Source of the DNA: Chitinispirillaceae bacterium
GTDB lineage: Bacteria; Fibrobacterota; Chitinivibrionia; Chitinivibrionales; Chitinispirillaceae
DNA: 25,914 nt
Assembly (NCBI GenBank): GCA_036260705.1
Contig: DATAMG010000066.1
Span: forward strand, 1 to 25,914
Direction: 5' to 3'
Shown one piece after another: positions 7,302-21,255 of the stretch. The translations under genes and the position numbers were made by a program. The notes beneath the pieces are model-generated. The model was not told the origin of the DNA, ran no database searches, and was given only the letters and a program-made list of their open reading frames with translations. Within the stretch, counting starts at the first letter, position 1. Each line of letters opens with the position of its first letter.

Positions 7302-10300
7302 TTACTGACCGAATACTCTGAACTCGTATAAGCTGGGACTATCGCTGCCCGGTGTTCCATTAATTGTGATGCGAACATAACGGGCGGTGGTGGTACTGAA
7401 ACCATACCGTTGTGTTTGACGTGTATCCCAGTTGGGGTTCTGGTTTACCTGGGTTGTCCAGTTGACATTGTTGGGAGATGTTTCAACCTTGAAATCGTAG
7501 CAGTCTCCAGATGTGCCAACGGAGGCGAACATCATTTCAACCTCGTTCAGGGTACGCTGTGATCCCAGGTCAACCTTCACCCATTGAGGAAATGTTGTGG
7601 ATGATGCTTCCCAACGAGTTGTTGTGTTGTCATCACACACATTTGCAGCGGAATAGGGCCCGCCTACTTCACTTGATGCGGTAACGGTCTTACCCAGAGA
7701 AAGATTGCCGTATCCGCCATTGGGTGTGGTTGCGGATGCGGTATTGGACCAATCGGAAGTTTCTGATCCTTTAAAGGCATTTACCCTGTACCAATAGGTA
7801 ACCCCACCAGTCAATTGGGCATCGGTGTAAGTTCTGGCATTTGCACCTGCAGTGGCAATCTGAGACCATGGTCCGCTTGATCCCAATGATCTTTCAATGG
7901 TGAATCCGTTTTGATTAGACCCATTGTAACTCCATGCGAGGTTTATCTGATTTGGCGCCACGGCGGTAGCGGTAAGATTTGATGGAGACTGCACTTCGGA
8001 AGAATAAAATTCCATTTCAGCGATGTTGCAATTGCTGCCATCCGGGCCCAGATAGCGGACCCAACGGTATGCCTTTGAATTGGAAATGGTCACTTCATGC
8101 CACTGGTCGTGAGAAGTATTGGAAAGAGTGTAAAGATCTTCGAAATCGCTGCTGTTTGATGTTTTACCCTGGAACTTTCCACCATCCATTCTCGATTCCA
8201 AATCATGAGGTGGATAATACCGGATTTTTGAGATGACCTTCGCGGTTCCAAAATCCAAACCAGTATAACCTCCATCGGCAAACTTGTAATCGTAAAAGGT
8301 GGCAGTGTTTCCATCGATTGCGTTACAATATTCAGATCCGGAGTAATTTGCCGGGCCCGCTCCGAATGCAGTACCATGGAGGCCATTTCCTCCCCCTTGA
8401 GCTCCTGAGCAGGGATCTTCAACAAAGTTAGCTACGATTTTGTGGTTTGTGGTAATATCGTTGAATGTGTAGGAGGATACTCCCGGTTGATCTTTATCGT
8501 CAATCGAAAGGTAACAGGAATAACCGTTTTGAGGAGTAATCGAATAGGTTGCGCTTGAGCCGATACTGTAAGTTCTGATTCCACTGGGAGTAATAGAACC
8601 ATTGGACCCGGCTTGCGAGGTAATGGTGCACTCAGAGGGAACCTGCATGGAAGTATTGGTAAGAGTTATATAATCAAGATTGATGCAATTCCAGCTCGAA
8701 GCCGTTGATTTGTATTCAATAGAGTTGAGTCCGGCTTTTAGTGTCACAATTTCCGTATCATTTGCCCAGGAGTCCCAATTGGCAGTACCTGAGCAGGTAA
8801 TATCCTTTACGGGAATCCCATTTACAGAGAGTCTGGTATTGGCACTTTCACCGTTACCTGCTGAATAACGCAGCATTATTTCATAGTTGCCGTCAAAAGG
8901 TACATTAACGGTAAAGTTCACCGCTGCCGAGGCGTTGTAGAAAAAGCCGTCGACGAATCCCGTTCCTGAATACCCGCTGTGATTATTATTACTGTTTGCT
9001 CCGCCCGAAAGCGCAGCATCTTCGGCTTCATAGAAGTCTGTCGGTGATGAAATACCTACAAGATCGGAGCAGGAATAAGCATTATCAGGCTCTCCAAACT
9101 TATGATTTTTAATTGTCCGTACGAATACCCGGATATTAGAATTATCAGGATTGATCGTCAGGGTGACCGAATTCTTGGGGTACTCGACAGATGTACAGCT
9201 CCATTCTCCACCAACGGCTTTGTAGAAAATCTGCGTATGGTCACACACATCACTTCCGCGAAATTGCCAGTTCAGTGCAGCCTGGTTGGAGCCGCTCTTG
9301 CTTACGACCAATTCTGCCGGTCGAACATTAATCGGATTGGTTAGAGAAGCAGGTGTTTTGAGATCAATGACATTCGACGATGCTTTGTCTATTTCATTTG
9401 CGGCACTCAAGCTTATTCCATAAGTCGAATTTGTAGGCAGATCCATACCCTTGGAGTAGGATTTGATTCTGCGACGCGGATACTCTTTAAACGGGCCATT
9501 GTACCAGTAGGTGCCATCGGGAAACTTCATCGCTGCCTGGAAAACAAACCCTAGTTCGTTTTCGTAACCAATAGCAAATTCACATTTCATCGAATAGGGA
9601 TTACCATTGAGGTAGGCACTTTTAAGGTCAGGCGCATAGAGGTTGCTTAAGGGCATCACAGAAACGGTGTCGGAGTTGGCACGCTGACCGAATTCGTTGA
9701 TAGCTGCGACTGTGTAATAATATGTGGTATTATTCATGATGTTACTGTCAAGAAAGGTTGTATGGGGTGTGTTGATGATTGTTACGAACGGACCATTGGA
9801 ACTGGTCGACCGTTTGAGGTTATACGATACCCCTGTTTCCGGCACTATGGACCAGGAAAGGTTTGCACTGTTTGAGCCCGCGATTGGGGTATATAGCTCA
9901 GGAGTGGCTGGAGGCAGAGTGTCATTATTGGATGTTAATGTTGTGGCTGAATCGATCAGTGAATAGCCGCTGGACAGGCCGTCTTTTTCAAAGGCTATAC
10001 GATACTTATACCTAGTGCCTTCACTCAGGTTCTCATCCAAATATTCAGTGCCAGAAATTCTATTTGTTGTGATATCAGCAAACCCGGCCCGTTTTGCTTT
10101 AGAAGTAAAATTCGTACTTCGCTGGATACGGTATCCGTTAGCGCCCGGACATGGATCCCAGGAGAGTCGAATCTGAGAATGTGAAATCGCGGCAGCTTTA
10201 AAATTCTGTGGAACTTGTGCTTTGTAAATTGTTGGCAGGTTGAGCGCGACCTCTGGACATCCATACAGCATAGTCCATTGCACGTTACTTGTTTGTTGCT

Positions 10301-11444
10301 GTAAGTGTAATGAGTCCAATGCTTCAGCTGCGCACAAGTTAGAGTCTATCAAGTAGCTGAAATAAGCCGGCATTGCAATCTTTTCATCGACATTAGTGCC
10401 TACACCTTCATGGCTTCCTACAGTTTCTGTCGCTCCTACATAAGAAATTGCATTTGCGAAAAGTGTTCTGGCTCCACAGTTATTTGAGGATCGCGGATTC
10501 ATGGTGCCGCAACTGGCAGCATAAACCATTGCCGGAAAGGTGTCATTGAGATTTTTTGCGCCAGTCGAGGATATTATTCCCGATGATGATGTATTCCCTC
10601 CATGTGCATGCCAGTATACAATTCCTGGTGTTTCGCTTATCCAGGCGTTGAGAAAATCAGATTCGTTGCAATGAACATTTTCCCAAAGCGGGTTTTTGTT
10701 CACCATTTCCGGAATGAGAAAGTGGGGTGGATTTTTATATTGGACATAGTTGTCATAAAGCCTGTAAGAATTCCATCCTTTTGAAGGTAAAGTCGTGAGA
10801 ACGCTCTCGCCTATTTTATAGTTTTCTTCCTCTGGTTTGCTGCCTAGCCCAAGCGGAGTCTGTGCTATAAGGAAATTGCGACGCCATTCTACATCTGTTG
10901 CGTTTGAATAGGCTATTACCCTGCTCAGGTAGTTATCTAAATTAGTAGTATCGTCATCATACACCGGAATTCGTCCCACACAAAGATCTGCCCTGGTTTG
11001 TTTTATCCAATCGTTGCTCATATTTGCATAAGCGAAATCGGTAGCGATGTTAGTAGATTTAGGATATTTGGCCAGGAACATAGGCACATCCCCGTAATCC
11101 GGACATGGATGACCAATGAGAAGGACAAACTTGTTTGTATTGCTGGAAACATACCATTTCTTAATCTCAGAACGTATGCTGTCGGCTATCTCTTCGGAAC
11201 CCGCTTTGCCGGTGGGATTTATTTGAGCATCGTCTCTTGTTTGTACACTCGCGCCGAGTCCCCTCAGATGAGCGATGTAATCGTTGAGTTTATGTGATTT
11301 ATCTCTAATCCGGTTTGAATAAATAATCAGGTAACCCCGCCCATTGACATGGTTAGTGGCAGGGGGAGAAGATTGGGCCATTAACTGCACCGTGGCAGAA
11401 ATAAATATAAGTCCACCGATAACCAATTGATTGAATAAGCGCAT
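7302..11444 (-). CDS. Large secreted clan-CD cysteine peptidase (gingipain/C25-like) fused to FN3, CBM6/35-like, InlB-B-repeat-like and two F5/8 type C (discoidin) domains
   Basis: Signal peptide is MRLFNQLVIGGLIFISATVQLMA. The His-Gly ... Ala-Ser-Cys dyad arrangement (VYWHAHGG, His281; MVYAASCGT, Cys312 at nt 10509-10511) is typical of clan CD. FN3-like segments include PQNFKAAAISHSQIRLSWDPCPGANGYRIQRS and others. The CBM6/35-like segment is DFYEAEDAALSGG...GYSGTGFVDGF...NWDSWAN...INLDYITL. Discoidin-like segments are NAIDGNTATFYD... and AANVCDDNTTTRWEA...FPQWVKVDLG. AAGGAGG lies 5 nt upstream of the ATG. Confidence 0.85.
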   Translation of the reverse strand: MRLFNQLVIGGLIFISATVQLMAQSSPPATNHVNGRGYLIIYSNRIRDKSHKLNDYIAHLRGLGASVQTRDDAQINPTGKAGSEEIADSIRSEIKKWYVSSNTNKFVLLIGHPCPDYGDVPMFLAKYPKSTNIATDFAYANMSNDWIKQTRADLCVGRIPVYDDDTTNLDNYLSRVIAYSNATDVEWRRNFLIAQTPLGLGSKPEEENYKIGESVLTTLPSKGWNSYRLYDNYVQYKNPPHFLIPEMVNKNPLWENVHCNESDFLNAWISETPGIVYWHAHGGNTSSSGIISSTGAKNLNDTFPAMVYAASCGTMNPRSSNNCGARTLFANAISYVGATETVGSHEGVGTNVDEKIAMPAYFSYLIDSNLCAAEALDSLHLQQQTSNVQWTMLYGCPEVALNLPTIYKAQVPQNFKAAAISHSQIRLSWDPCPGANGYRIQRSTNFTSKAKRAGFADITTNRISGTEYLDENLSEGTRYKYRIAFEKDGLSSGYSLIDSATTLTSNNDTLPPATPELYTPIAGSNSANLSWSIVPETGVSYNLKRSTSSNGPFVTIINTPHTTFLDSNIMNNTTYYYTVAAINEFGQRANSDTVSVMPLSNLYAPDLKSAYLNGNPYSMKCEFAIGYENELGFVFQAAMKFPDGTYWYNGPFKEYPRRRIKSYSKGMDLPTNSTYGISLSAANEIDKASSNVIDLKTPASLTNPINVRPAELVVSKSGSNQAALNWQFRGSDVCDHTQIFYKAVGGEWSCTSVEYPKNSVTLTINPDNSNIRVFVRTIKNHKFGEPDNAYSCSDLVGISSPTDFYEAEDAALSGGANSNNNHSGYSGTGFVDGFFYNASAAVNFTVNVPFDGNYEIMLRYSAGNGESANTRLSVNGIPVKDITCSGTANWDSWANDTEIVTLKAGLNSIEYKSTASSWNCINLDYITLTNTSMQVPSECTITSQAGSNGSITPSGIRTYSIGSSATYSITPQNGYSCYLSIDDKDQPGVSSYTFNDITTNHKIVANFVEDPCSGAQGGGNGLHGTAFGAGPANYSGSEYCNAIDGNTATFYDYKFADGGYTGLDFGTAKVISKIRYYPPHDLESRMDGGKFQGKTSNSSDFEDLYTLSNTSHDQWHEVTISNSKAYRWVRYLGPDGSNCNIAEMEFYSSEVQSPSNLTATAVAPNQINLAWSYNGSNQNGFTIERSLGSSGPWSQIATAGANARTYTDAQLTGGVTYWYRVNAFKGSETSDWSNTASATTPNGGYGNLSLGKTVTASSEVGGPYSAANVCDDNTTTRWEASSTTFPQWVKVDLGSQRTLNEVEMMFASVGTSGDCYDFKVETSPNNVNWTTQVNQNPNWDTRQTQRYGFSTTTARYVRITINGTPGSDSPSLYEFRVFGQ

Positions 11445-12177
11445 CGAAACCTCCTTGGTATATATGATGCTGATATGTGTTCTGGTGACAGTAATTTCTT
11501 TTTATGGTTAACCGTATATTCAGCTTAACACATTAATAAGTAATAACCATTCCTAAAATTCAGAATGGACGGAATAAAATGATACTTTAATAGCTGTGTA
11601 GTAATATCTGGCGGATATGAATACTTGTTTTTTTTAGCGGTGCACTTGAAGGCTTCCAGAATTGATTGATCAACCGGCATACTAAATCCAACTGATTCCT
11701 GAATGTCAAAAAACTGCCAGTTCAAGATCCTTTTTCCACGCACCACTTTAAAATTAATCTTTATTCTCGATAGGAATCTCCTGTTGAGGTATGTAATTGG
11801 TAACTGTGATGACAACCGGTTCTTTTTTGATTAGTCTGAACAAAAGGATGCTGCTGCAGTAAATAACAGAACCGAAAGCGAAATTCTCTGTGGTTGATTT
11901 TTTAACTCCTTCTGTTTAAGTTTTTATCCTTTGTAGAAAGGATCTCGTAAAGTCGGGGAAAAGTATTCAAATTTCGTGCCAAATGTGCTAAAGTGTTAAT
12001 TATGAAAGGATTATGACTATAATAATGGCACAAAGTAATATTTTTGGACTACAAGAAGAAAAAAGGTTGATTAAATGCAGGCAAAAATTACTCTTGAACA
12101 TGGGTCTGTAAGCCATAAAAACGGTTGACACAATTGAACTGGTAGTGCAACTCGTTTTAATTCAATAACATACGCCA

Positions 12178-12197
12178 CATGGGTCTATAGACCCATG
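12178..12197. repeat. 20-bp perfect palindrome catgggtctatagacccatg
   Basis: It is self-complementary when read directly. A third copy of the half-site catgggtct lies at 12099-12107. The palindrome sits about 100 nt downstream of the ybaK stop in a ~480-bp region without a convincing ORF. Confidence 0.8.
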
Positions 12198-12294
12198 GGA
12201 GGTTACAGAAAGTACTGTGCCATATACTCAAGGTTTGTAAAAGGGAGAAGAAATGAAGGTGAATATTAATGGAATTACAAATTAAAATCAGAAT

Positions 12295-12768
12295 TCAGTT
12301 TGCAACCAGATCTGCTGTTTTATACGAAGTAGCAGTTATTAAGTCATCGGGTGCTATCTTAAATTGCAAACCACGAGTGCCGGCACTGACAAAAATATGA
12401 TCGTAGAGTATGCAACTTTCATCAATAAATCCAGGATATTTCTTTTTCATGCCTAATGGCGAGCAGCCACCGCGAATATAGCCGGTAAGATTGAGTATCT
12501 CTTTCATGGGCACCATCTCTGCATTTTTGTTCCCGGAAATCTGAGCGGACTTTTTAAGGTCCAGCTCCTGTGCTCCTGGTATAACACATATAAAAACCCC
12601 GGTTTTGTCTCCCCTTAAAACCAGAGTTTTAAATACCTGTTCGACATTCTGGCCAAGCTTGCTGGCAACGGTGATTGCGCTAAGATCAGATTCATCAACC
12701 TGATAAGCAACAAGTTCATAGTGTATACCAAGATTATCCAGTATACGTGCAGCGTTGGTTTTGGACAT
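12295..12768 (-). CDS. ybaK: Cys-tRNA(Pro)/Cys-tRNA(Cys) deacylase YbaK
   Basis: The 157-aa ORF aligns by eye along its length with E. coli YbaK (FKTLV, LDLKK-A...G-K--EM, TGY-RGG-SPLG-KKK-P-FID, VSAG-RGL). Confidence 0.9.
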   Translation of the reverse strand: MSKTNAARILDNLGIHYELVAYQVDESDLSAITVASKLGQNVEQVFKTLVLRGDKTGVFICVIPGAQELDLKKSAQISGNKNAEMVPMKEILNLTGYIRGGCSPLGMKKKYPGFIDESCILYDHIFVSAGTRGLQFKIAPDDLITATSYKTADLVAN

Positions 12769-13559
12769 TGTTTATGACTTTTCCCGGCAGAAAATTTAGT
12801 GTAAAAAGAGTATAAATTTAATGAATTTCCGCTTAATAATCCACTTTTTTAGAAATCGACTGTGGCTTAGTTATTTCATTAGCTTGACTAAATTTGATCC
12901 GCTCTCCCTTCCCAGCCTCCGCAGTTCTGCCCACAGCACTAAGGAGGACGGTACGATCTTCGAAGACTCGATCTACAAGGATGAACCGCGGCAATATCTT
13001 ATTCTTTCTTAACGCAACTTTCGCTCGTACTTAGCATCCGTAGTTCTTACGAAGGATAGTCGAAGTATGAGCTTATTTTACTTTTTTCATAAGCTGACTG
13101 TTTCTCTTTGAGCAATTGATTTGCATTTTTTTGCAAGGCCTGCAAATCCGTGTCTCTGTGTAGAATGTGGCCCATTAGCTGTAGAGCGGGCAAGATCGAC
13201 ATTTCCTCTGCCCGGACAGGCTGCATCCCGCATCTCAATGGATCTGGGCAACGGATTCTTCAATAATTAATTCTTGTCTTACAAGTGATTGGAAACTTTA
13301 GACTCAGGCTACTTATATTTTAAATCAGAAAGATAAAAAATATCTGGCTGTTTCAATTCCTGATAAATGTGATATATGGCAGATAAATGTTAATGGCAAG
13401 GAGAGATCTCCTCTGATAGATGATGAGAATAAGATTCGAATAATTCTTCCGCAGAATGACTTTAACGGGCAGGATAATCAGAAAGTGGTGGTTAATGTTC
13501 TTAACGGTTATTTTTGCAGGTATTGCAGAAAGTTGATTTTTTTCAAAAAAACTTTTTTG

Positions 13560-13588
13560 GTGACAATCATAAGCTTGTAAAGTATAAT
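13560..13588 (+). promoter_or_regulatory. Sigma70-like promoter candidate for the WG-repeat gene
   Basis: GTGACA (13560-13565), a 17-nt spacer, then TATAAT (13583-13588), about 52 nt upstream of the ATG at 13641. GGAGA lies upstream of the start. Confidence 0.45.
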
Positions 13589-13640
13589 ATTCAGTCTATA
13601 TAACAAAACAGCAGTATATCTAAACTCACCGGAGAAGAAT

Positions 13641-15638
13641 ATGAAAGTTTCTTTTGCAGTTCTTTCTGCGTTTTTTATCATTATGTTTTCCACTGTAACA
13701 CATTCTAAAAACATTATTAAGCTTCTGGAATCACAGAATTTTTACGCAATAGTCGATTCTGCATCTGGTGGGATTATCAAAGCTTTAAAATATGAGCGTG
13801 TGGGTGAGTTCGAAGAGGGCTTTGCTACTGTATATTTGAACGGGTATGGATTCATTGATGAAAACGGAAAAGAGATAACACCTTTGATCTACAGTAGAAT
13901 TTCAAATTTCCGGGATGGATTTGGGCAGATCGAAATGAATCGGAAATGGGGCTGTGTAGATAAAACAGGAAAAGAGCTTACCGAGTTCAAATATGATTAT
14001 GTCTGTTCATTCAGCCGTGATATAGCCATGGTAAAACTTGGTAATAAAGCAGGATATATCAACCGTGAAATGATAGAGATAGTACCTCTAAAATATGATG
14101 ATGTTGAGTTTACCGGAAAGTACAGTAAAAACCTGTTTAGAGTGAAACTGAACGGGAAGTTTGGATATGTTGATAGGAGCGGAAAAGAAATCATACCGCC
14201 GAAATATGATGATGCTTGTCAAGGGGATGATTTCAAAGAAGGAATAGGAATAGTATGTGTTAATAATAAATGGGGTGTAATAGATGAGAGCGGAAAGGAA
14301 GTGTTGCCTTTTAAATACGATATAATAAACCTGGATGCCTTCAAGAACACAGGCCTGATCTGTATCTCTATTGATGGAAAATGGGGATGTATCAACATAA
14401 AAGACGAGGTAGTAGTTCCGATAAGTTATGAACATGTTTCATTATTCAGCAACAATCTGTTGCAAGTTGGTTTAAATGGCAAGTTTGGGTTGATAAATGT
14501 TAATAATAAGATAGTCGCTCAAATAATCCATGGTGATATAAAGCTATCATGTTACCCTGATCTTATCGAAGTCTCAAATGGCAAATTTTCTTCGTACGGC
14601 TTTATTGATTTCACAGGTAAAGTGGTCGTCCCTGCAAAATATAACAGTGCAATTATTGTTGATAGCTGCATTATTGTAGAAGAAACAAGGAAAACCGGGG
14701 CTGGCAGCATAACCGGACAAGGTATATTGAATCTGAAAGGTGAAGTGGTTTTGCCTACGAAATATAAGAAAGTGAAGCAGTACAAAAGATCTTTTTTTCT
14801 GGTGGAAACAGAACATCCTAAATATGGTCTTTGTAATAAATCAGGTAGATTAATAGTTGATCTTCATGATTTTATTATTCTACAGGACAGTCTTGTGTAT
14901 GTAAATAAGGGAGGAGTGCTTAGGAACAATAACATAAATGGAGGTAAAAATGGTCTTTACGATTTAGAAGGCAGAAAACTCACAGAAATAGTTTACGATT
15001 ACATATCAGCATTCAATGATGGACTTGCTGTTGTAGTTAAAGCTGGCAAAATGGGTTTCATTGATAAGAGCGGCAGAGAAGTCATCGGACTCAAATATGA
15101 TTATGTCTTTGACATGAGATTCCATAACGGGCTGGCAGCGGTAAATATCGGCGGTAAAATGGATGAGAACCTGGGATTTGTTTCCGGCAAATGGGGATTT
15201 ATAGACTCCAAAGGCGAAATGATTATCCCATACCAGTATGATGGTGCATCTGCTTTTAGCGCCGGTGTAGCGCCAGTCAAAAAAGATGGATTTTTCGGGG
15301 CTGTAGACAGGAACGGTAATGAAATAGTACCTTTTAAATATCAGGATATGGGACCGTTTTTTGAGGGCATAGCCTATTACAGAAGGGGTGAAAAATTTGG
15401 GTTCATCGATTCAACTGGTAAAGAGCTCTGTCCTAATGAATATAATTCTGCCGGAATTTTCAGTGATGGAATCGCCCCAGTATTAAAAGATAACAAAATC
15501 GGATTCGTAGACAAAAATGCAAAGCTTGTTATTCCTTGCCAATACGACGATGCAGGGAACTTTATTAACGGATACTGCCTTGTGAGAATCGGAGATAAAA
15601 ACCATCTGATAAATAAAAGAGGTGAGGTGATTAAATAA
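13641..15638 (+). CDS. Secreted WG-repeat (KWG-type) protein
   Basis: Signal peptide is MKVSFAVLSAFFIIMFSTVTHS. About 15-18 (by eye) tandem ~35-40-aa units follow, each with the G-(K/R)-(W/F)G-(F/Y/C/V)(I/V)D-x-xGKE-(I/V)-P-KYD pattern (KWGCVDKTGKE, KFGYVDRSGKEIIPPKYDD, KWGVIDESGKEVLPFKYD, KWGFIDSKGEMIIPYQYD). Confidence 0.9.
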   Translation: MKVSFAVLSAFFIIMFSTVTHSKNIIKLLESQNFYAIVDSASGGIIKALKYERVGEFEEGFATVYLNGYGFIDENGKEITPLIYSRISNFRDGFGQIEMNRKWGCVDKTGKELTEFKYDYVCSFSRDIAMVKLGNKAGYINREMIEIVPLKYDDVEFTGKYSKNLFRVKLNGKFGYVDRSGKEIIPPKYDDACQGDDFKEGIGIVCVNNKWGVIDESGKEVLPFKYDIINLDAFKNTGLICISIDGKWGCINIKDEVVVPISYEHVSLFSNNLLQVGLNGKFGLINVNNKIVAQIIHGDIKLSCYPDLIEVSNGKFSSYGFIDFTGKVVVPAKYNSAIIVDSCIIVEETRKTGAGSITGQGILNLKGEVVLPTKYKKVKQYKRSFFLVETEHPKYGLCNKSGRLIVDLHDFIILQDSLVYVNKGGVLRNNNINGGKNGLYDLEGRKLTEIVYDYISAFNDGLAVVVKAGKMGFIDKSGREVIGLKYDYVFDMRFHNGLAAVNIGGKMDENLGFVSGKWGFIDSKGEMIIPYQYDGASAFSAGVAPVKKDGFFGAVDRNGNEIVPFKYQDMGPFFEGIAYYRRGEKFGFIDSTGKELCPNEYNSAGIFSDGIAPVLKDNKIGFVDKNAKLVIPCQYDDAGNFINGYCLVRIGDKNHLINKRGEVIK

Positions 15639-15927
15639 TTCTTTCTGGAATCTGGTGATGTAAATACCTCAAATGCAGTCGAATGTTTTACCAGGTTTTA
15701 TAATTAAATCGCCGCTTCCGGATTTTTCGCGGGTAGTCCCTATATATTGTGGTAAAGGCATAATTTCACAATGAATTAAAAACAATTGAGTTACCATATA
15801 TGGTATATACCCACAAAAAGCCGGATGCCCCAAAGATATTAGAGGGGATTTTGATGTTTCAAAGGGAGTTGTTTTTAAACGCAGATCTCAAAAGAACAAG
15901 AAAGAATCCTTTGTTTTATATCAATCA

Positions 15928-16146
15928 ATGCAATCAAACAGAGCTCAAAAAATTCCCTTAATGCTGGAGGCATCACCAGAGCATATATTCGGGAAAAAAA
16001 TATTGGTTGTTGATGAACAGCCTGTATTGGAGCTGATTATTGGGAAAAAGAGTTATCTTACAGGAATTTTCACCGGCTACGGAGTCATTATCGTTTTTAT
16101 AATTACTGTGGTTTTAATTCAGAAGAAAAGAAACTTATTAAAATAG
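15928..16146 (+). CDS. Hypothetical small tail-anchored membrane protein (weak call)
   Basis: 72-aa ORF with one C-terminal hydrophobic helix (LTGIFTGYGVIIVFIITVVLI) followed by KKRNLLK. It has no recognisable RBS and no family match that I recognise. Confidence 0.25.
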   Translation: MQSNRAQKIPLMLEASPEHIFGKKILVVDEQPVLELIIGKKSYLTGIFTGYGVIIVFIITVVLIQKKRNLLK

Positions 16147-16265
16147 TGGTGATGCAAAATACAATTCACCTAACCCTCAGCGCACTCTACCGGGCTTCAA
16201 GGCTGGAGGTTCCTCAGTATATTCGGAATGACAAGTAATACAGTCAAAATGTGATTCTATTAAGT

Positions 16266-16290
16266 ATTCTGGCAAAAAACTTGCCAGAAT
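16266..16290. other. 10-bp-stem hairpin attctggcaa-aaaac-ttgccagaat
   Basis: The inverted repeat is perfect when read directly. It lies in a ~1-kb low-coding stretch. No U-run follows on either strand, so a terminator role is unproven. Confidence 0.6.
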
Positions 16291-16650
16291 TAACTTGCTA
16301 ATGTATCTTATTGCCCTATCGGTTAATTAAATTTGGCAGGCAAAAGCAGGGATTGCTATGATGATGCTTAAAAAGAGTGGACCGGTCAGGACATACATTA
16401 ACAAACCAAAGATTAGCGTTAATCTTAATATTGTAAAATCGGTAGATAAAATTTACAGTAGCCGTCTTAAAGATGTCCTTGGTATAACAGGTTTCAACAG
16501 CTTTATCCCAATTTTTAATCTCGCTGATACAATTCCTGACAGCTGCATTCATTTCTATTCTTCAATAGTGCAGCTAAAAAGTTGGGCAAATTTAAAAACA
16601 AATTGAGATAAAACTATTTTAAAAGTCAGTTAAGTATTGAAATTATGTGC

Positions 16651-16679
16651 TTTACAATAAATCGAATCAGAAATAATAA
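16651..16679 (+). promoter_or_regulatory. Sigma70-like promoter candidate upstream of the TIR gene
   Basis: TTTACA (16651-16656), a 17-nt spacer, then TAATAA (16674-16679), about 36 nt upstream of the ATG at 16715. The region is very AT-rich, so chance matches are likely. Confidence 0.3.
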
Positions 16680-16714
16680 ATTTCAAATTTAGTAATGCAT
16701 TTATGGAGGCGCTC

Positions 16715-17893
16715 ATGGCAAAACCACTCAGTGTATTTATTTCTTACTCTCACAAAGATAAAATATTTTGCTCGGATTTAAGAGAATATCTGACACTACT
16801 TGAAAAAGATGGATTAATTTCTCTCTGGTATGATGGTCAAATTGTGCCTGGAACTGAGTGGGATATTGAAATTAAAGAAAACCTCAGAAAAGCTGACATA
16901 ATTTTGTTATTAGTAAGTAACGATTTCATCAATTCTAATTATATCGATAAGATCGAATTAAAAGAAGCAATGGACAGGCATAACAATAAATCTGCAAGGG
17001 TAATTCCGATAATTACACGCACATGTGAGTGGGAGAGATTACTATTACACAAGCTGTCTGTTTTGCCAAAAAATGAGAATGATTCTGTTGAACCAATATT
17101 TAAATGGTCACAACCAGATGATGCCTATGTGAATATTGCTAAGGGGGTTCGCAGAGCTGTCGAGGATCTTATGTTATCATTAAAAATGGACGAAAAAATT
17201 AACAAGCCAGAATCAGGACAAAAAACACTGACACCACCCGATGAAAATTTGTATCATTTGTTTGGCTTAAAAGGCATTAGAACCGGTGATGTAACGATTC
17301 AGGATTTCGCTATCAGCAGAGTCGGAATGGGAGAAAAAAATATTAATGCAGTACAGTATTTGTGGGCAGACACATTTACCGGCTGTAAAATTAATGCAGT
17401 AATAAAAAAAGATAGAATTCCATGTCTGCGTGTGGAATTTGATCATAGAGGCGGGTGGGGATGCAATTTAGCAATTCGACCAAAATGTGAAATGGCTTAC
17501 CATAATAAAGGTTATAGATATTTAGTTTTTGATGCAATCCTACCTAAAGATATGGAAACTGAATCAAACGATCTGCTTAAGGAGGTGTCCGTAGCCGTTC
17601 GTATCGTAAATGGCCGGCTTCAGCATTGGGAGTATTCAGTTCATTCCAGAGAATACATAAATTTGATCGTTAAAGAATCGACATGGGGTTTGGAGCCTGT
17701 AAAAATCGACCTGATGTCGGATAATTGGCATTTGTTCACATCTGATGGTAATATCAAAACTTATGATGATGATCCAAATTTCTCAACTATTACATCAGTG
17801 ATTTTGAAATTCGGCAGCACACCAGATGTTACTGGCGAACCTGCCCGTGGGAAAGGTATAATAGAAATCAGATCACTATATTTATCTGATTGA
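16715..17893 (+). CDS. TIR-domain protein with an uncharacterised ~215-aa C-terminal domain
   Basis: TIR_2-type N-terminus: PLSVFISYSHKDKIFCSDLREYL...GLISLWYDGQIVPGTEWDIEI...ADIILLLVSNDFINSNYIDKIELKEAM. GGAGG lies 5 nt upstream of the ATG at 16715; the ORF track's earlier ATG at 16703 has no RBS. There is no signal peptide or TM segment. The C-terminal part (nt ~17240-17890) has no motif I recognise. Confidence 0.85.
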   Translation: MAKPLSVFISYSHKDKIFCSDLREYLTLLEKDGLISLWYDGQIVPGTEWDIEIKENLRKADIILLLVSNDFINSNYIDKIELKEAMDRHNNKSARVIPIITRTCEWERLLLHKLSVLPKNENDSVEPIFKWSQPDDAYVNIAKGVRRAVEDLMLSLKMDEKINKPESGQKTLTPPDENLYHLFGLKGIRTGDVTIQDFAISRVGMGEKNINAVQYLWADTFTGCKINAVIKKDRIPCLRVEFDHRGGWGCNLAIRPKCEMAYHNKGYRYLVFDAILPKDMETESNDLLKEVSVAVRIVNGRLQHWEYSVHSREYINLIVKESTWGLEPVKIDLMSDNWHLFTSDGNIKTYDDDPNFSTITSVILKFGSTPDVTGEPARGKGIIEIRSLYLSD

Positions 17894-17952
17894 AAATGTA
17901 ATTCGCTTCATGCTTACATATGTGTAAAAGCAGTATGAAGAAGGAGATGTGA

Positions 17953-19236
17953 ATGCTGATTATAAATAATGAATCAATGGATAAATATATTAAATCTCGA
18001 TATACTTATCAGAATATACAGGAAATTTTAAATGTTCTGGAAGCTCAAAAGACGCTGACTTTTTCTCCTTTAGATAACGGGCTTTTTCCTGCTGCCAAAA
18101 CTGGAAAAGAAACAGACTATACCGGATATTCTTCTATTTGGGTGAGAGATAATATCCATATAGCTCATGCTCATTCAGTGCTTGACAACTATGAAATTGC
18201 CCTGAAGACTATTAATGCTTTAATGTGCTATTTTAAAAAACACAAGAATCGGTTTGAAAAAATCATTTCTTTTCAATCAGATCCTTCTGATCCTATGAAC
18301 CGTCCGCATATCCGCTTTAATGGTTTTAACCTTGAGGAAATAGATCAGAAATGGGCACATGCTCAGAATGACGCTTTAGGCTATTTCTTATGGTTTTATT
18401 GTAAACTTGCTAATCAAGGCAGACTTAAAATTTTGGATGAGGATCTGGAATTATTACTTCTCTTTCCAAAATACTGGTCAACCATTCAGTTCTGGCAGGA
18501 TGAGGATAGTGGGCATTGGGAGGAAAATCGCAAAATTTCAGCTTCCAGCATTGGAGTTGTATTAGCTGCTTTACAAGAATTGAATCACTATTTATCCAAT
18601 CATAATCAAATAAAAATGGAGGTAATCGATCAGATAAAGTATTTGATTGGGATGGGTCAGCAGAGTTTAGATCTAATACTTCCATCAGAGTGCATTCAAT
18701 CTGATTCAAAGAAAAAAAGACGGTTTGATTCTGCTCTACTGTTTCTTATTTATCCTTTGGGGGTTGTAACTGGAAATATGGCAGATACAATCCTGAATGA
18801 TGTAATGACAAATCTGCAGGGTAAGTATGGAATCCGCCGGTATATTGGAGATTCTTATTGGTCAGCAGATTACAAAAAGAAACTCGAGCCCGGAGCACGG
18901 ACTGTTGATTTTAGCGACGATCTTTCTACAAGAGATTCTTTTCTTAAAGAAAATGAAGAAGCACAATGGTGCATATTTGATCCAATCATTTCAGTAATCT
19001 TTGGATTAAAATATCAGAAAACAAAGTCTGAACACGATTTTAACTTACAAATACACTATTTAAATCGTTCCCTTGGACAGATTACCGGTTTTCAAAGCAA
19101 TACAGGTGAATTTCTGTGCCCTGAAAGCTATTATTTGGAAGATGGTAAATATGTTCCAAGTGATCCGACTCCTCTTTATTGGACACAGGCTAATTTAATT
19201 TGCGCTCTTAAGACGATGGAACATTCTTTACAGTAA
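17953..19236 (+). CDS. Cytoplasmic glycoside hydrolase family 15-like (alpha/alpha)6-barrel protein (glucoamylase / phosphorylase-kinase alpha-beta-like)
   Basis: GH15 landmarks are present: YSSIWVRDN, the general-acid region DSGHWEEN, the general-base region FLCPESYY, and the closing PLYWTQANLI (compare PLTWSHA). There is no signal peptide. AAGGAG lies 6 nt upstream of the ATG. The gene starts 59 nt after the TIR gene stop. Confidence 0.75.
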   Translation: MLIINNESMDKYIKSRYTYQNIQEILNVLEAQKTLTFSPLDNGLFPAAKTGKETDYTGYSSIWVRDNIHIAHAHSVLDNYEIALKTINALMCYFKKHKNRFEKIISFQSDPSDPMNRPHIRFNGFNLEEIDQKWAHAQNDALGYFLWFYCKLANQGRLKILDEDLELLLLFPKYWSTIQFWQDEDSGHWEENRKISASSIGVVLAALQELNHYLSNHNQIKMEVIDQIKYLIGMGQQSLDLILPSECIQSDSKKKRRFDSALLFLIYPLGVVTGNMADTILNDVMTNLQGKYGIRRYIGDSYWSADYKKKLEPGARTVDFSDDLSTRDSFLKENEEAQWCIFDPIISVIFGLKYQKTKSEHDFNLQIHYLNRSLGQITGFQSNTGEFLCPESYYLEDGKYVPSDPTPLYWTQANLICALKTMEHSLQ

Positions 19237-19355
19237 ACGAATGTCAAAGTGAATGGAATCATATGAATACAGCATTGTGTCTCGCCAGACTATCCACAAA
19301 TTGCTCTGAAAAATTAAATTATCAATACCATCACCCCAAAAAGAAAAGAGACTGT

Positions 19356-19790
19356 ATGAAAACTTCTAATCTGAATTTTCTCCTGTTAACATTTCTCAGC
19401 TTAACTTTTGTATGGACAGCTGAGGGAAAGAAACCGGTTCAGGATTCTTCATTAACCCCCCTATCTGTGATAGAGAAGGCTTTTTTAAAAAAGACATCAA
19501 ACATTCAGGTAAAACAGGCTGGAACGATAATCAAATTATTACCAGATGACAACGATGGCGCCAGACATCAGAAGATGATAATAAAATTGGAAAATGGTCG
19601 CACACTTCTGATTTCACATAATATCGATCTGGCAAAGAGAATTCCGAATCCCAGAACTGGGAAAAATCTGAAATTCTATGGCGAATACGAATGGAATTCA
19701 AATGGTGGAGTCGTTCACTGGACTCATAAGGATCCCGGTGGTAAGCATATCAACGGTTGGTTGGAATACGAAGGGAAGAAATATCAGTGA
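19356..19790 (+). CDS. DUF3465-like secreted protein
   Basis: From the internal ATG at 19356 the product begins with a signal peptide (MKTSNLNFLLLTFLSLTFVWTAEG). The stretch LLPDDNDGARHQKMIIKLENGRTLLISHNIDLAKRIP...FYGEYEWNSNGGVVHWTHKDPGGKHINGW matches my memory of the DUF3465 consensus. The track's longer 19263 start adds a non-signal extension. Confidence 0.7.
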   Translation: MKTSNLNFLLLTFLSLTFVWTAEGKKPVQDSSLTPLSVIEKAFLKKTSNIQVKQAGTIIKLLPDDNDGARHQKMIIKLENGRTLLISHNIDLAKRIPNPRTGKNLKFYGEYEWNSNGGVVHWTHKDPGGKHINGWLEYEGKKYQ

Positions 19791-19944
19791 CGAGTGCAGA
19801 GTAACGAGTGGGGGAGCAGAGTGCCTACCCCAGTCGTACTCGAATTTGAAGCAAATTCACATTATAATTCGGTAGTACACAACGTACACTCTAATCTGCC
19901 TACAAACCTACCGCTACGATTGGCTCAATAACTATCTTATTTTC

Positions 19945-20682
19945 ATGGAACCTCAACAGACACATAACACTCATGACCACTATTTCCGGGAATCTGTCGA
20001 ACATCCAGAGATAATAAAAGACATATGCAGACTGACTATTCCAAAAAAGCTGCTTTCCATATTGGATTTAACTAAACTTGAAATAGTACACGATGTGTGG
20101 GTTGATAATGATCTAAGTATTCATTATGCAGATGTTCTGTACCGTGCACGGATTAAAGGAAAGAGACAGTGGGTCTATCTGCTGTTTGAGCATAAAAGTA
20201 GGATCAATGCTGATGTGTCTTATCAGATCCTTAGTTATATGATGCAGATCTGGGAGGAGTATCGTAAACAGAGCAGGCGTAACCTTAATAAGCACCCGCT
20301 TGTTATCTCAACCGTTTTATACCATGGTTATAAACCCTGGAAGAGATGCAATACTATAAAAGACATAACCGAAGTTTTAACAGATGCTGAAGATTATGTG
20401 CCTGAATTCAGGGCAAAAGTATTCGATGTGAGTGAATTATGTGAAACTCAATTGGGCAAAGTGAGCTTTTACGCTCAAGTGTTTCTTATTTCATTAAGAT
20501 ACTCTTATCATCCAGAAAAATGGGAAATTTTACCAGAGCTGATACAATTGTACCGTAAAGCAACTGGTAAGCAGAGGGAGTACCTGTCTGTATCATTCAA
20601 ATACATTTTGGGTTTGATGAATATAGGCAGAAAAAACAGCTTTTTGCAAAGGCAAGGGCGTATGATGGTGGGGATGAGTTGA
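19945..20682 (+). CDS. Rpn/YhgA-like (Transposase_31) PD-(D/E)XK recombination-promoting nuclease, N-terminal nuclease portion
   Basis: The sequence HDHYFRESVEHPEII...ADVLYRARIKGKRQWVYLLFEHKS...YQILSYMMQIWEEY fits the family pattern HD--FK ... D-(l/v) ... (l)-EHQ/K-S. The ORF ends at a TGA that overlaps the next ORF's ATG (TGATG at 20680-20684). Confidence 0.8.
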   Translation: MEPQQTHNTHDHYFRESVEHPEIIKDICRLTIPKKLLSILDLTKLEIVHDVWVDNDLSIHYADVLYRARIKGKRQWVYLLFEHKSRINADVSYQILSYMMQIWEEYRKQSRRNLNKHPLVISTVLYHGYKPWKRCNTIKDITEVLTDAEDYVPEFRAKVFDVSELCETQLGKVSFYAQVFLISLRYSYHPEKWEILPELIQLYRKATGKQREYLSVSFKYILGLMNIGRKNSFLQRQGRMMVGMS

Positions 20683-20921
20683 TGAGATCGATAGCAGATG
20701 TATTGCGTGATGAGGGCGTAAAAATAGGTGTAGGTAAGGGAATAAAAATAGGTGAGGAGATAGGCGAGAAGATAGGTGAGAAAAAGGTGCATAGTGAGAA
20801 TGAAATGCGGGATGCGAAAATGGTAATCAAAATGTATCATAAGGGTATTAGTATAAAAGACATACATGAGATAACCGGAATATCTATGCAGAAAATAAGG
20901 AAAATTCTAAAGAGTGACTGA
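20682..20921 (+). CDS. Rpn-family C-terminal region encoded as a separate, +1-shifted 79-aa ORF
   Basis: The sequence SIADVLRDEG-(KIGx repeats)-...MYHKGISIKDIHEITGISMQKIRKIL resembles the tail normally fused in frame to Rpn nucleases (SIAE-L-EEG repeat region plus a terminal HTH-like TG(L/I)S--EI--L). The ATG at 20682 overlaps the upstream stop. Confidence 0.6.
   Translation: MRSIADVLRDEGVKIGVGKGIKIGEEIGEKIGEKKVHSENEMRDAKMVIKMYHKGISIKDIHEITGISMQKIRKILKSD
20721..20780 (+). repeat. Imperfect 12-nt in-frame tandem repeat (a/g)a(a/g)ataggtgag
   Basis: The units are aaaataggtgag (20745-20756), gagataggcgag (20757-20768) and aagataggtgag (20769-20780), plus a partial aaaataggtg (20721-20730). Together they encode KIGVGKGIKIGEEIGEKIGEK. 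Confidence 0.8.
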
Positions 20922-21255
20922 AATTTTTCAGCAACGCTTAGTACTGGCTTTGAATGAAAATGCCATTTCCTTCATATAAATCTTGCTTAAAAGGTCCAGG
21001 GTCGATTTTTTCTTCACATCTCCTAAGGTACATTATAAATCTGGGGGGAGTGAAAATGATCAGGTTAACTATAAGTTAACTATAATAAGTAGGCTATCTT
21101 TCCAGCATAATAAGTGACCAGATAAGAATCTGCCATGTCACTTGATTTACCCCACTGCGGTTTCTTCCGCAAACCAGGATGGATTTATAGATCTGGATTC
21201 CATTTCCCGATCAACCCCCACCCGGAAAATAAATCAGCACCCCCCCAAAAAAACA

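Follow-up and report, generated by a model that had tools for sequence, protein, structure and literature searches.

In the effectors of the Pycsar and CBASS systems, and in Cat1, a C-terminal domain is the receiver of a signal and a TIR domain is the NADase output. To our knowledge, all well-understood bacterial fusions of a TIR or transmembrane (TM) effector to a receiver depend on a signal derived from nucleotides, which a cyclase, a polymerase or a TIR protein makes. The DNA analysed here (the window) is a 25,914-bp contig from a metagenome-assembled genome (MAG) of Chitinispirillaceae (Fibrobacterota), and it carries two adjacent genes whose logic appears to resemble that of the known systems of an effector-receiver and an enzyme. 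Here the conserved partner is a glycosidase-fold protein related to family GH15, and the candidate receiver is a C-terminal domain (CTD) without family assignment. The favoured reading, with a probability of about 0.5 as a whole, is that the GH15-like protein would be the input, the CTD the receiver and the TIR domain an exchangeable output of a sugar-linked cell-fate or anti-phage switch.

Pycsar (the PycC cyclase with PycTIR or PycTM) is likewise a two-gene cassette in which an exchangeable N-terminal TIR or two-TM domain precedes a C-terminal receiver, and 13 representatives of the CTD family bear the Pycsar-effector TIR subtype (PF10137). Unlike in Pycsar, the putative receiver is a predicted beta-sandwich without a Pfam or cyclic nucleotide monophosphate (cNMP)-binding match, and its partner is a GH15-like protein of predicted (alpha/alpha)6 fold rather than a nucleotide cyclase. 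TIR-SAVED (CBASS), TIR-STING and Cat1 (CARF-TIR) share with the present protein the fusion of a TIR domain to a sensor, with Cat1 as its best match and a fold that also matches AbTir and SARM1. The sensor domain and presumed ligand class here are different from theirs and undescribed. The scanned open reading frames (ORFs) of the window, eight searched with PADLOC and all long ones with Pfam, gave no match to a ThsA-like protein, a cyclase or an Argonaute, in line with the first-pass annotation, which had found no SIR2/SLOG/Macro ThsA-like, cyclase or Argonaute partner. The features of the pair are as follows.

16703..17893, + strand: gene 1 as the mechanical ORF, 396 aa
16715..17893, + strand: gene 1 as a protein of TIR domain, linker and CTD, 392 aa; P0121, annotated by NCBI as a TIR protein, is 100% identical
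16705..16709, + strand: GGAGG, ribosome-binding site (RBS) of gene 1 as read in the sequence, 5 nt before ATG 16715
16733..17194, + strand: TIR domain, approximately aa 7-160, from Pfam TIR_2, PADLOC ThsB1 and AlphaFold2 (AF2)/Foldseek
16955-16957, + strand: putative catalytic Glu81 of the TIR domain (392-aa numbering)
17192..17362, + strand: low-complexity or disordered linker, approximately aa 160-216, with a predicted local distance difference test score (pLDDT) <50
17234..17890, + strand: CTD, predicted all-beta domain of ~220 aa without Pfam family, conserved partner of the GH15-like gene
17894..17952, + strand: spacer of 59 nt, with AGGAG at 17942-17946 and a weak hairpin without a U-run
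17953..19236, + strand: gene 2, GH15-like protein of the phosphorylase kinase (PhK) alpha/beta D1 type, 427 aa; PF00723 at 37.7 bits
18514..18528, + strand: HWEEN motif, aa 188-192, with putative general acid E190
19117..19134, + strand: CPESYY motif, aa 389-394, with putative general base E391

The adjacency of the two genes was surveyed in a small census of 15 distinct contexts that contain a CTD-family gene, the inputs of which included a metagenome scan with the CTD profile (4 loci returned) and a word-indexed protein search (20 proteins returned). In 10 of the 15 contexts a GH15-like gene lies directly downstream of the CTD gene, on the same strand and with a spacer of 17-106 nt. These linked contexts are the window, L001/L016/L017 (Desulfobacterales or Desulfobacterium N47-like), L018/19 (Syntrophaceae), L020 (an unassigned JGI contig), L021, L022/23, L025, L026, L027 and L035/36. 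Each has flanking genes unrelated to those of the others, among them a biotin operon with recA, a PAS regulator, AbiEii with Mu-like genes, a purF-like gene and glycogen genes. It had been suggested earlier that the two genes might be unrelated and adjacent by coincidence, and the window indeed holds no other known defence gene. However, because the same ordered pair recurs in 10 contexts across unrelated lineages, the adjacency is not chance; coincidence is refuted by this recurrence and its probability is very small.

The upstream protein of the linked pair varies at its N-terminus. In L021, L026 and L035 it has two TM helices instead of a TIR domain, and in L022 a TM segment and a coiled coil. 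An N-terminal EAD11 domain is probable in P0132, the contig of which is too short for a view of the neighbours, and in the L024 protein; the L024 contig ends 270 nt past the CTD gene, and the downstream ORF fragment matches PF00723 (8e-5) but not the PhK-like subfamily. All of these upstream proteins, whether of the TIR, two-TM, TM and coiled-coil or EAD11 type, share the CTD of ~220 aa. Since the GH15-like gene is retained where the TIR domain is replaced by two TM helices, by TM and coiled coil or, as is likely, by EAD11, the CTD appears to be the constant partner, and the conserved link would be from CTD to GH15-like protein and not from TIR to GH15-like protein. Across nine pairs, the pairwise identities of the CTD correlate with those of the GH15-like protein (r = 0.64; p = 0.002 by permutation), with the CTD diverging faster (37-66% identity among linked pairs versus 50-77% for the GH15-like protein).

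The layout described in the first-pass annotation, of two co-directional genes with an RBS each, was confirmed. ATG 16715 is the likelier start of gene 1, because GGAGG is placed just upstream of it and the resulting protein of 392 aa is the one annotated by NCBI. AGGAG is the RBS of gene 2, 6 nt before ATG 17953, and the N-terminus of the encoded protein (MLII.NE) is kept in homologues. No terminator-like site is present on the + strand across 15600-20000, and the two genes are probably co-transcribed, as had been considered plausible. The imperfect hairpin of the spacer has a folding energy of only -12.4 kcal/mol (z = -1.66), which 15 of 200 shuffles equal, and it was rejected as a regulatory element as it is not significant against the shuffles. 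By inspection, neither protein shows an N-terminal signal peptide, which agrees with what had been noted before.

The TIR domain of gene 1 matches Pfam TIR_2 over residues 11-111 (E 1.8e-16) and the PADLOC ThsB1 model PDLC00420 over residues 10-158 (E 2.2e-42), the latter covering profile positions 3-147 of 319, the TIR part only. It is predicted by AF2 with a pLDDT of 80-90, and Foldseek matches the model to AbTir, BtpA, PdTIR, SARM1 and Cat1, of which Cat1 is also the best sequence match among solved structures. Glu81 aligns with the ELeqA motif of Cat1, is retained in all nine TIR-bearing CTD homologues and occupies the position of the catalytic Glu after the SxxxW/Y...E helix by which TIR NADases are recognized. 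These features suggest that the TIR domain would be an NAD+-cleaving output. Full-length homologues of the protein share 39-50% identity, and the linker differs among them in both length and sequence. The contigs that carry them have the same lengths as those with the closest homologues of the GH15-like protein.

The match to ThsB1 and the two-gene layout liken the locus to Thoeris (ThsB TIR with ThsA). A Thoeris-like arrangement would have the TIR protein sense infection and make an ADP-ribose (ADPR)-derived signal, with the GH15-like protein as effector, signal-clearing enzyme or immunity factor; the adjacency and probable co-transcription of the genes and the conservation of the putative catalytic residues of gene 2 are all consistent with this. 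However, no ThsA-type partner (SIR2-SLOG, TM-Macro or caspase-like) is encoded in the window, as far as its ORFs were scanned, or in the sister loci. Because TM domains, which are non-enzymatic and unable to make ADPR-derived signals, replace the TIR domain while the GH15-like partner stays, the TIR domain is unlikely to be the maker of a signal, and the earlier proposal that the glycosidase senses or processes an ADPR-derived product of the TIR conflicts with its retention in cassettes that have no TIR. Furthermore, the GH15-like protein has no extra ligand-sensing domain, its putative active site is nearly identical to that of members with no TIR gene nearby, and the Pycsar-effector type of TIR occurs within the CTD family. 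A Thoeris-like mechanism is thus considered quite unlikely. Neither the CTD nor the GH15-like protein is represented by a PADLOC model, and the searched literature contains no paper that links GH15 or glucoamylase-like proteins with TIR domains, Thoeris or anti-phage defence; the statement in the first-pass annotation that a glycosidase-fold partner lies outside the described TIR systems is upheld within those sources.

The CTD is predicted by AF2 to be an all-beta sandwich with a pLDDT of about 70-80. Pfam gives no match for it at E<=1 apart from noise, and Foldseek none at E <= 1e-3 against PDB or BFVD. The best Foldseek matches (7e-3 in PDB, 1.8e-3 in BFVD) are weak and of jelly-roll type; among these matches are Eph ligand-binding domains, the carbohydrate-binding module (CBM) X584, CenC-like tail-fibre domains and the N-domain of an exo-beta-agarase. 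W217, F242, R296, W305, W338, F341 and G345 hardly vary across the family, and the motifs include QDF, WAD, GGWGCNxAIR, RIVNGxLQHWEY and SDGN. The near-invariant positions are rich in Trp, Phe, Arg, Gln and Asp, a make-up that is compatible with sugar binding but no proof of it. Classical bacterial GH15 glucoamylases and glucodextranases also combine a beta-sandwich with a barrel and share GH15 Pfam membership with gene 2, so that CTD and GH15-like protein may be said to mirror them conceptually. In the present case sandwich and barrel are on separate polypeptides, and the CTD does not match the glucoamylase N-domain. That the CTD is a detached N-domain of bacterial glucoamylases was rejected, as neither Pfam nor Foldseek gave a match.

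A search of 1.84 billion proteins with the CTD profile yields 281 representatives (clusters at 50% identity). Nearly all of these end with the domain or shortly after it (median tail of three residues), and 30-460 variable residues precede it. A Pfam scan of 132 representatives identified TIR_2 in 28, the Pycsar-effector TIR in the 13 mentioned above, helix-turn-helix (HTH) domains in three, DUF4062 and Pkinase in two each, and SIR2_2, EAD1, EAD11, a lipase-like alpha/beta hydrolase and a ParA-like domain in one each. Hydrophobicity analysis predicted N-terminal TM helices in 60 of 150 representatives, 38 of these with two. From these architectures the TIR looks like one of several exchangeable N-terminal output domains on the CTD. 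A separate observation within the family concerns L029:5346-7230, in which a 205-aa SpbK-like TIR gene lies directly before the TIR-CTD gene (P0388). A GH15-like gene is absent from the vicinity, so that this CTD protein has a partner of another kind.

Gene 2 matches Glyco_hydro_15 (PF00723) above the cut-off (37.7 bits against 22), only residues 41-209 being aligned, and has no PADLOC or NCBIfam match. Its length and the full-length family profile fit a protein that would consist of the (alpha/alpha)6 barrel only. Homologues are numerous, with 2,498 clusters (90% identity) matching at 53-65% identity and the closest at 61-65%; they span Cyanobacteria, Desulfobacterota, Planctomycetota, the candidate phyla radiation (CPR) and others, and many are annotated as 'phosphorylase kinase alpha/beta subunit'. 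In a neighbour-joining tree the linked GH15-like genes form one main clade (the window and P0002-P0011) and occur in at least one further clade (L022, L027). Marichromatium sp. AB32 (P0011; GH15-like protein at 60% identity) was considered as a cultured carrier of the pair and rejected, since its gene has remnants of insertion sequences upstream and no CTD gene beside it. No relatives of either protein were found in viral contigs. Plasmids yielded no CTD, and their GH15-like matches were confined to distant genes of the E. coli chromosome that carry a wrong plasmid label.

Residue conservation was assessed in a set of 143 sequences (10 linked, 13 unlinked and 120 further). Both glutamate landmarks named in the first-pass annotation, HWEEN and CPESYY, are present, and W189, E190 and E391 are invariant throughout the set; E191 is kept except for an Asp in two distant unlinked sequences. 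The residues that are invariant or nearly so are W63, R65, D66, W134, D140, W189, E190, R296, D300, W339, P390, E391 and W410. The putative active-site residues are invariant in CTD-linked and unlinked members alike. Assignment of E391 as the general base is putative and by motif resemblance. An alignment of the family profile to Aspergillus niger glucoamylase was tried and discarded, as hmmsearch returned a spurious local match only and hhalign nothing; the numbering of the glucoamylase sequence used matches W178, E179 and E400.

Among solved structures, sequence comparison detects only human PhK alpha and beta as relatives of gene 2, which the family profile matches at 1e-12; the profile search of PDB returned no classical GH15 enzyme. 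E190 aligns with Glu185 of PhK alpha D1, one of two catalytic-type glutamates (PMC10978961), and both proteins have an association with glycogen. The bacterial protein differs in that it stands alone at ~430 aa and has WEE where PhK alpha has WER. PhK is reported to have no detectable hydrolase activity on maltose, isomaltose or glycogen (PMC10978961). The active site of PhK alpha D1 is intact, yet the domain serves as a scaffold without catalysis. This precedent would suit a relationship of the toxin and antitoxin kind, in which an effector-CTD toxin is held inactive by the bound GH15-like protein as antidote or guardee until a trigger removes or occupies the latter, catalysis being irrelevant; the fixed gene order, the short spacers and the co-divergence of the two proteins also agree with it. 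Conversely, the putative catalytic and substrate-binding residues are all invariant in the 143 sequences, which speaks for retained catalysis or the binding of a specific ligand. In addition, the GH15-like protein changes more slowly than the CTD and usually occurs by itself, and a dedicated antitoxin would be unusual in both respects. Such a relationship is regarded as improbable.

Several further members of the family were observed. In E. coli (L038:5782-7434) a distant member (27% identity, family hidden Markov model 8e-63) is located in the ETT2 type III secretion island, adjoining the SpaN/EivJ and YscQ/HrcQ genes; it is found in ~4,000 of 5,426 E. coli genomes and has no CTD gene nearby. 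P0025 and P0076 have their own N-terminal multi-TM extension of ~200 aa without a Pfam match, and the GH15-like enzyme is therefore membrane-tethered or fused to a membrane domain in some lineages. In MAGs of Melainabacteria/Obscuribacteraceae (L014:736-5088 and L015:5608-10049) a distant GH15-like gene (30% identity) is directly followed by a gene for a Ser/Thr kinase and TPR protein of ~905 aa, a pairing that recalls, by analogy, the union of GH15-like regulatory domains and kinase in phosphorylase kinase.

Genes of alpha-glucan metabolism surround the pair in two of the 10 linked contexts. In L026:28-5621 the order on one strand (+) is GT1-like, GlgC, two-TM-CTD, GH15-like and GH77, placing glgC upstream and GH77 downstream of the pair, and in L035:6001-11137 the two-TM-CTD and GH15-like genes are followed by convergent GH77 and GlgA genes. 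A Ser/Thr protein kinase-CTD fusion (P0333, 619 aa, from an 8.3-Mb genome) in L037:5001-8634 has a GH13 alpha-amylase gene 301 nt downstream; the theme recurs here with a kinase as output and another alpha-glucan enzyme as partner. The neighbours in L026, L035 and L037 therefore tie the CTD to alpha-glucan-active enzymes more broadly. In L003 a GH13-like gene, a sugar MFS transporter gene and a GH15-like gene stand in a row. GH15-like proteins probably act on or bind alpha-glucan-derived molecules.

The same neighbourhoods bear on a role in glycogen or alpha-glucan housekeeping and its regulation, not in immunity. The GH15-like protein would then be an ordinary cytoplasmic alpha-glucan hydrolase, and the CTD a glucan- or enzyme-binding module that anchors it (in the two-TM forms) or regulates it, while the TIR, kinase and HTH versions would couple the status of the carbon store to NAD+ metabolism, signalling or dormancy. 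The four loci described above are in keeping with this, as are the homology to glycogen-associated PhK alpha/beta subunits, the TM domains borne by some GH15-like members and the occurrence of a widespread, highly conserved family mostly without a CTD neighbour. The metabolic role which the first-pass annotation held in reserve thus receives some support, from glgC, GH77, glgA and GH13 genes and from the breadth of the family. It is countered by the set of outputs (TIR, Pycsar-type TIR, SIR2, EAD1/EAD11, lipase-like and two-TM), which is that of conflict and abortive-infection systems, by the patchy distribution of the pair in variable contexts with mobile-element neighbours, and by the absence of glycogen genes from eight of the 10 linked contexts. 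Housekeeping is accordingly held to be possible, at a probability well short of even.

The favoured reading, of GH15-like input, CTD receiver and exchangeable output, takes its assignment of roles from the architecture, because this matches that of the Pycsar, CBASS and Cat1 effectors. The two genes would form a horizontally mobile cassette of three functional parts. As input, the cytoplasmic (alpha/alpha)6 GH15-like protein would act on or bind a conserved cellular glycoside, most likely an alpha-glucan or a glycogen-derived molecule. The CTD, as a beta-sandwich receiver, would read the state of the GH15-like protein, whether through binding of the product or substrate of the enzyme or through direct contact with it. 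The TIR domain, joined to the CTD by the flexible linker, would when switched on assemble and cleave NAD+, and this would stop growth or kill the cell, for instance when a phage infects. Sister cassettes would use the same input to drive a two-TM membrane domain in place of the TIR, and elsewhere in the CTD family, outside cassettes with a seen GH15-like partner, the output may be a SIR2, a lipase-like, an EAD adaptor or a kinase domain. The data presented here directly comprise the conservation of the pair, the swapping of domains, the conserved residues, the co-divergence of CTD and GH15-like protein and the associations with alpha-glucan genes; we infer the direction of signalling, the nature of the ligand, the NADase activity and the anti-phage role. 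An anti-phage role of the cassette is plausible.

Several points weigh against this reading. Typical immune sensors are conserved far less strongly than the GH15-like protein, which shows 50-77% identity between linked pairs. This high conservation argues that the GH15-like protein recognizes a conserved cellular molecule rather than a phage protein, and it agrees with a metabolic-state trigger as well as with a role in regulation only. Three CTD genes, in L028 (a TIR-CTD protein at 31% identity), L029/30 and L033/34 (a solitary two-TM-CTD protein), have no GH15-like neighbour, and most members of the GH15-like family lack a CTD neighbour: the CTD gene is absent from the fetched flanks of all 13 GTDB-representative GH15-like loci (30-52% identity), as also from those of the L031 and E. 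coli genes. Known defence neighbours occur in only two of the 10 linked contexts, a small sample, these being AbiEii (L020) and a second TIR gene (L018), and apart from the TIR match no known defence system was detected among the scanned ORFs of the window. The closest characterized relative, PhK alpha D1, has an intact site yet no detectable hydrolase activity (PMC10978961), the assignment of the CTD to a jelly-roll or CBM-like fold is weak, and the two TM helices could be a mere membrane anchor and not an effector.

Were the coupling real, it would introduce a new input chemistry (glycan or glycogen state) for abortive-infection or cell-fate switches, define a new sensor domain with ~280 representative clusters, and provide a first functional handle on a large bacterial family related to the PhK GH15-like domains. 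A more specific version, in which a PhK-type enzyme of glycoside hydrolase fold makes or removes a carbohydrate messenger, or reports glycogen status, to a beta-sandwich receiver with TIR, SIR2 or membrane effectors, would constitute an immune or cell-fate class of its own, and is put forward as doubtful. If true, it would set a sugar-based pathway beside the nucleotide-based ones of CBASS, Pycsar and Thoeris, and would give a clue to what the GH15-like domains of eukaryotic phosphorylase kinase originally did.

Around three of the pairs there are signs of mobility or defence: a low-GC stretch with an Rpn/YhgA-like gene in the window, AbiEii with Mu/TnsC-like genes in L020, and a second TIR gene in L018. 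The low-GC stretch extends over ~11.5-21 kb of the window, at 0.33-0.40 versus 0.42-0.49 in the flanks, and contains (11500-21000) a tRNA_edit gene, a gene whose 665-aa product has 14 WG repeats, the TIR-CTD/GH15 pair, DUF3465 and the Rpn/YhgA-like gene. Its composition suggests a horizontally acquired island; a tRNA-linked integration site was rejected, since the window has no tRNA gene.

Beyond the pair, further genes were noted. At L018:12764-15020, ~3-6 kb downstream of the Syntrophaceae pair, a gene for a MAP3K_TRAF_bd/TPR-S protein is followed by one for a separate TIR protein of 296 aa, which matches the PADLOC TIR-effector and SAVED_TIR models; the two look like a second, unrelated TIR conflict module. 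In the window the DUF3465 gene (19263-19790), the product of which is secreted as judged by inspection, was rejected as a third component of the cassette, as it is not kept downstream in any sister locus. The Rpn/YhgA-like (Transposase_31) ORF at 19945-20682 overlaps by 4 nt a TTG-started ORF of 80 aa at 20679-20921 (resolvase-type HTH_7), and the two could represent a frameshifted or two-part recombination-promoting nuclease. On the opposite side of the pair, 7302-11444 (-) encodes a protein of 1,380 aa with CBM35/CBM6, two fibronectin type III and two F5/8 type C domains. This protein probably binds polysaccharides at the cell surface or after secretion, as is typical of Fibrobacterota, and has no connection with the TIR-CTD/GH15 pair.

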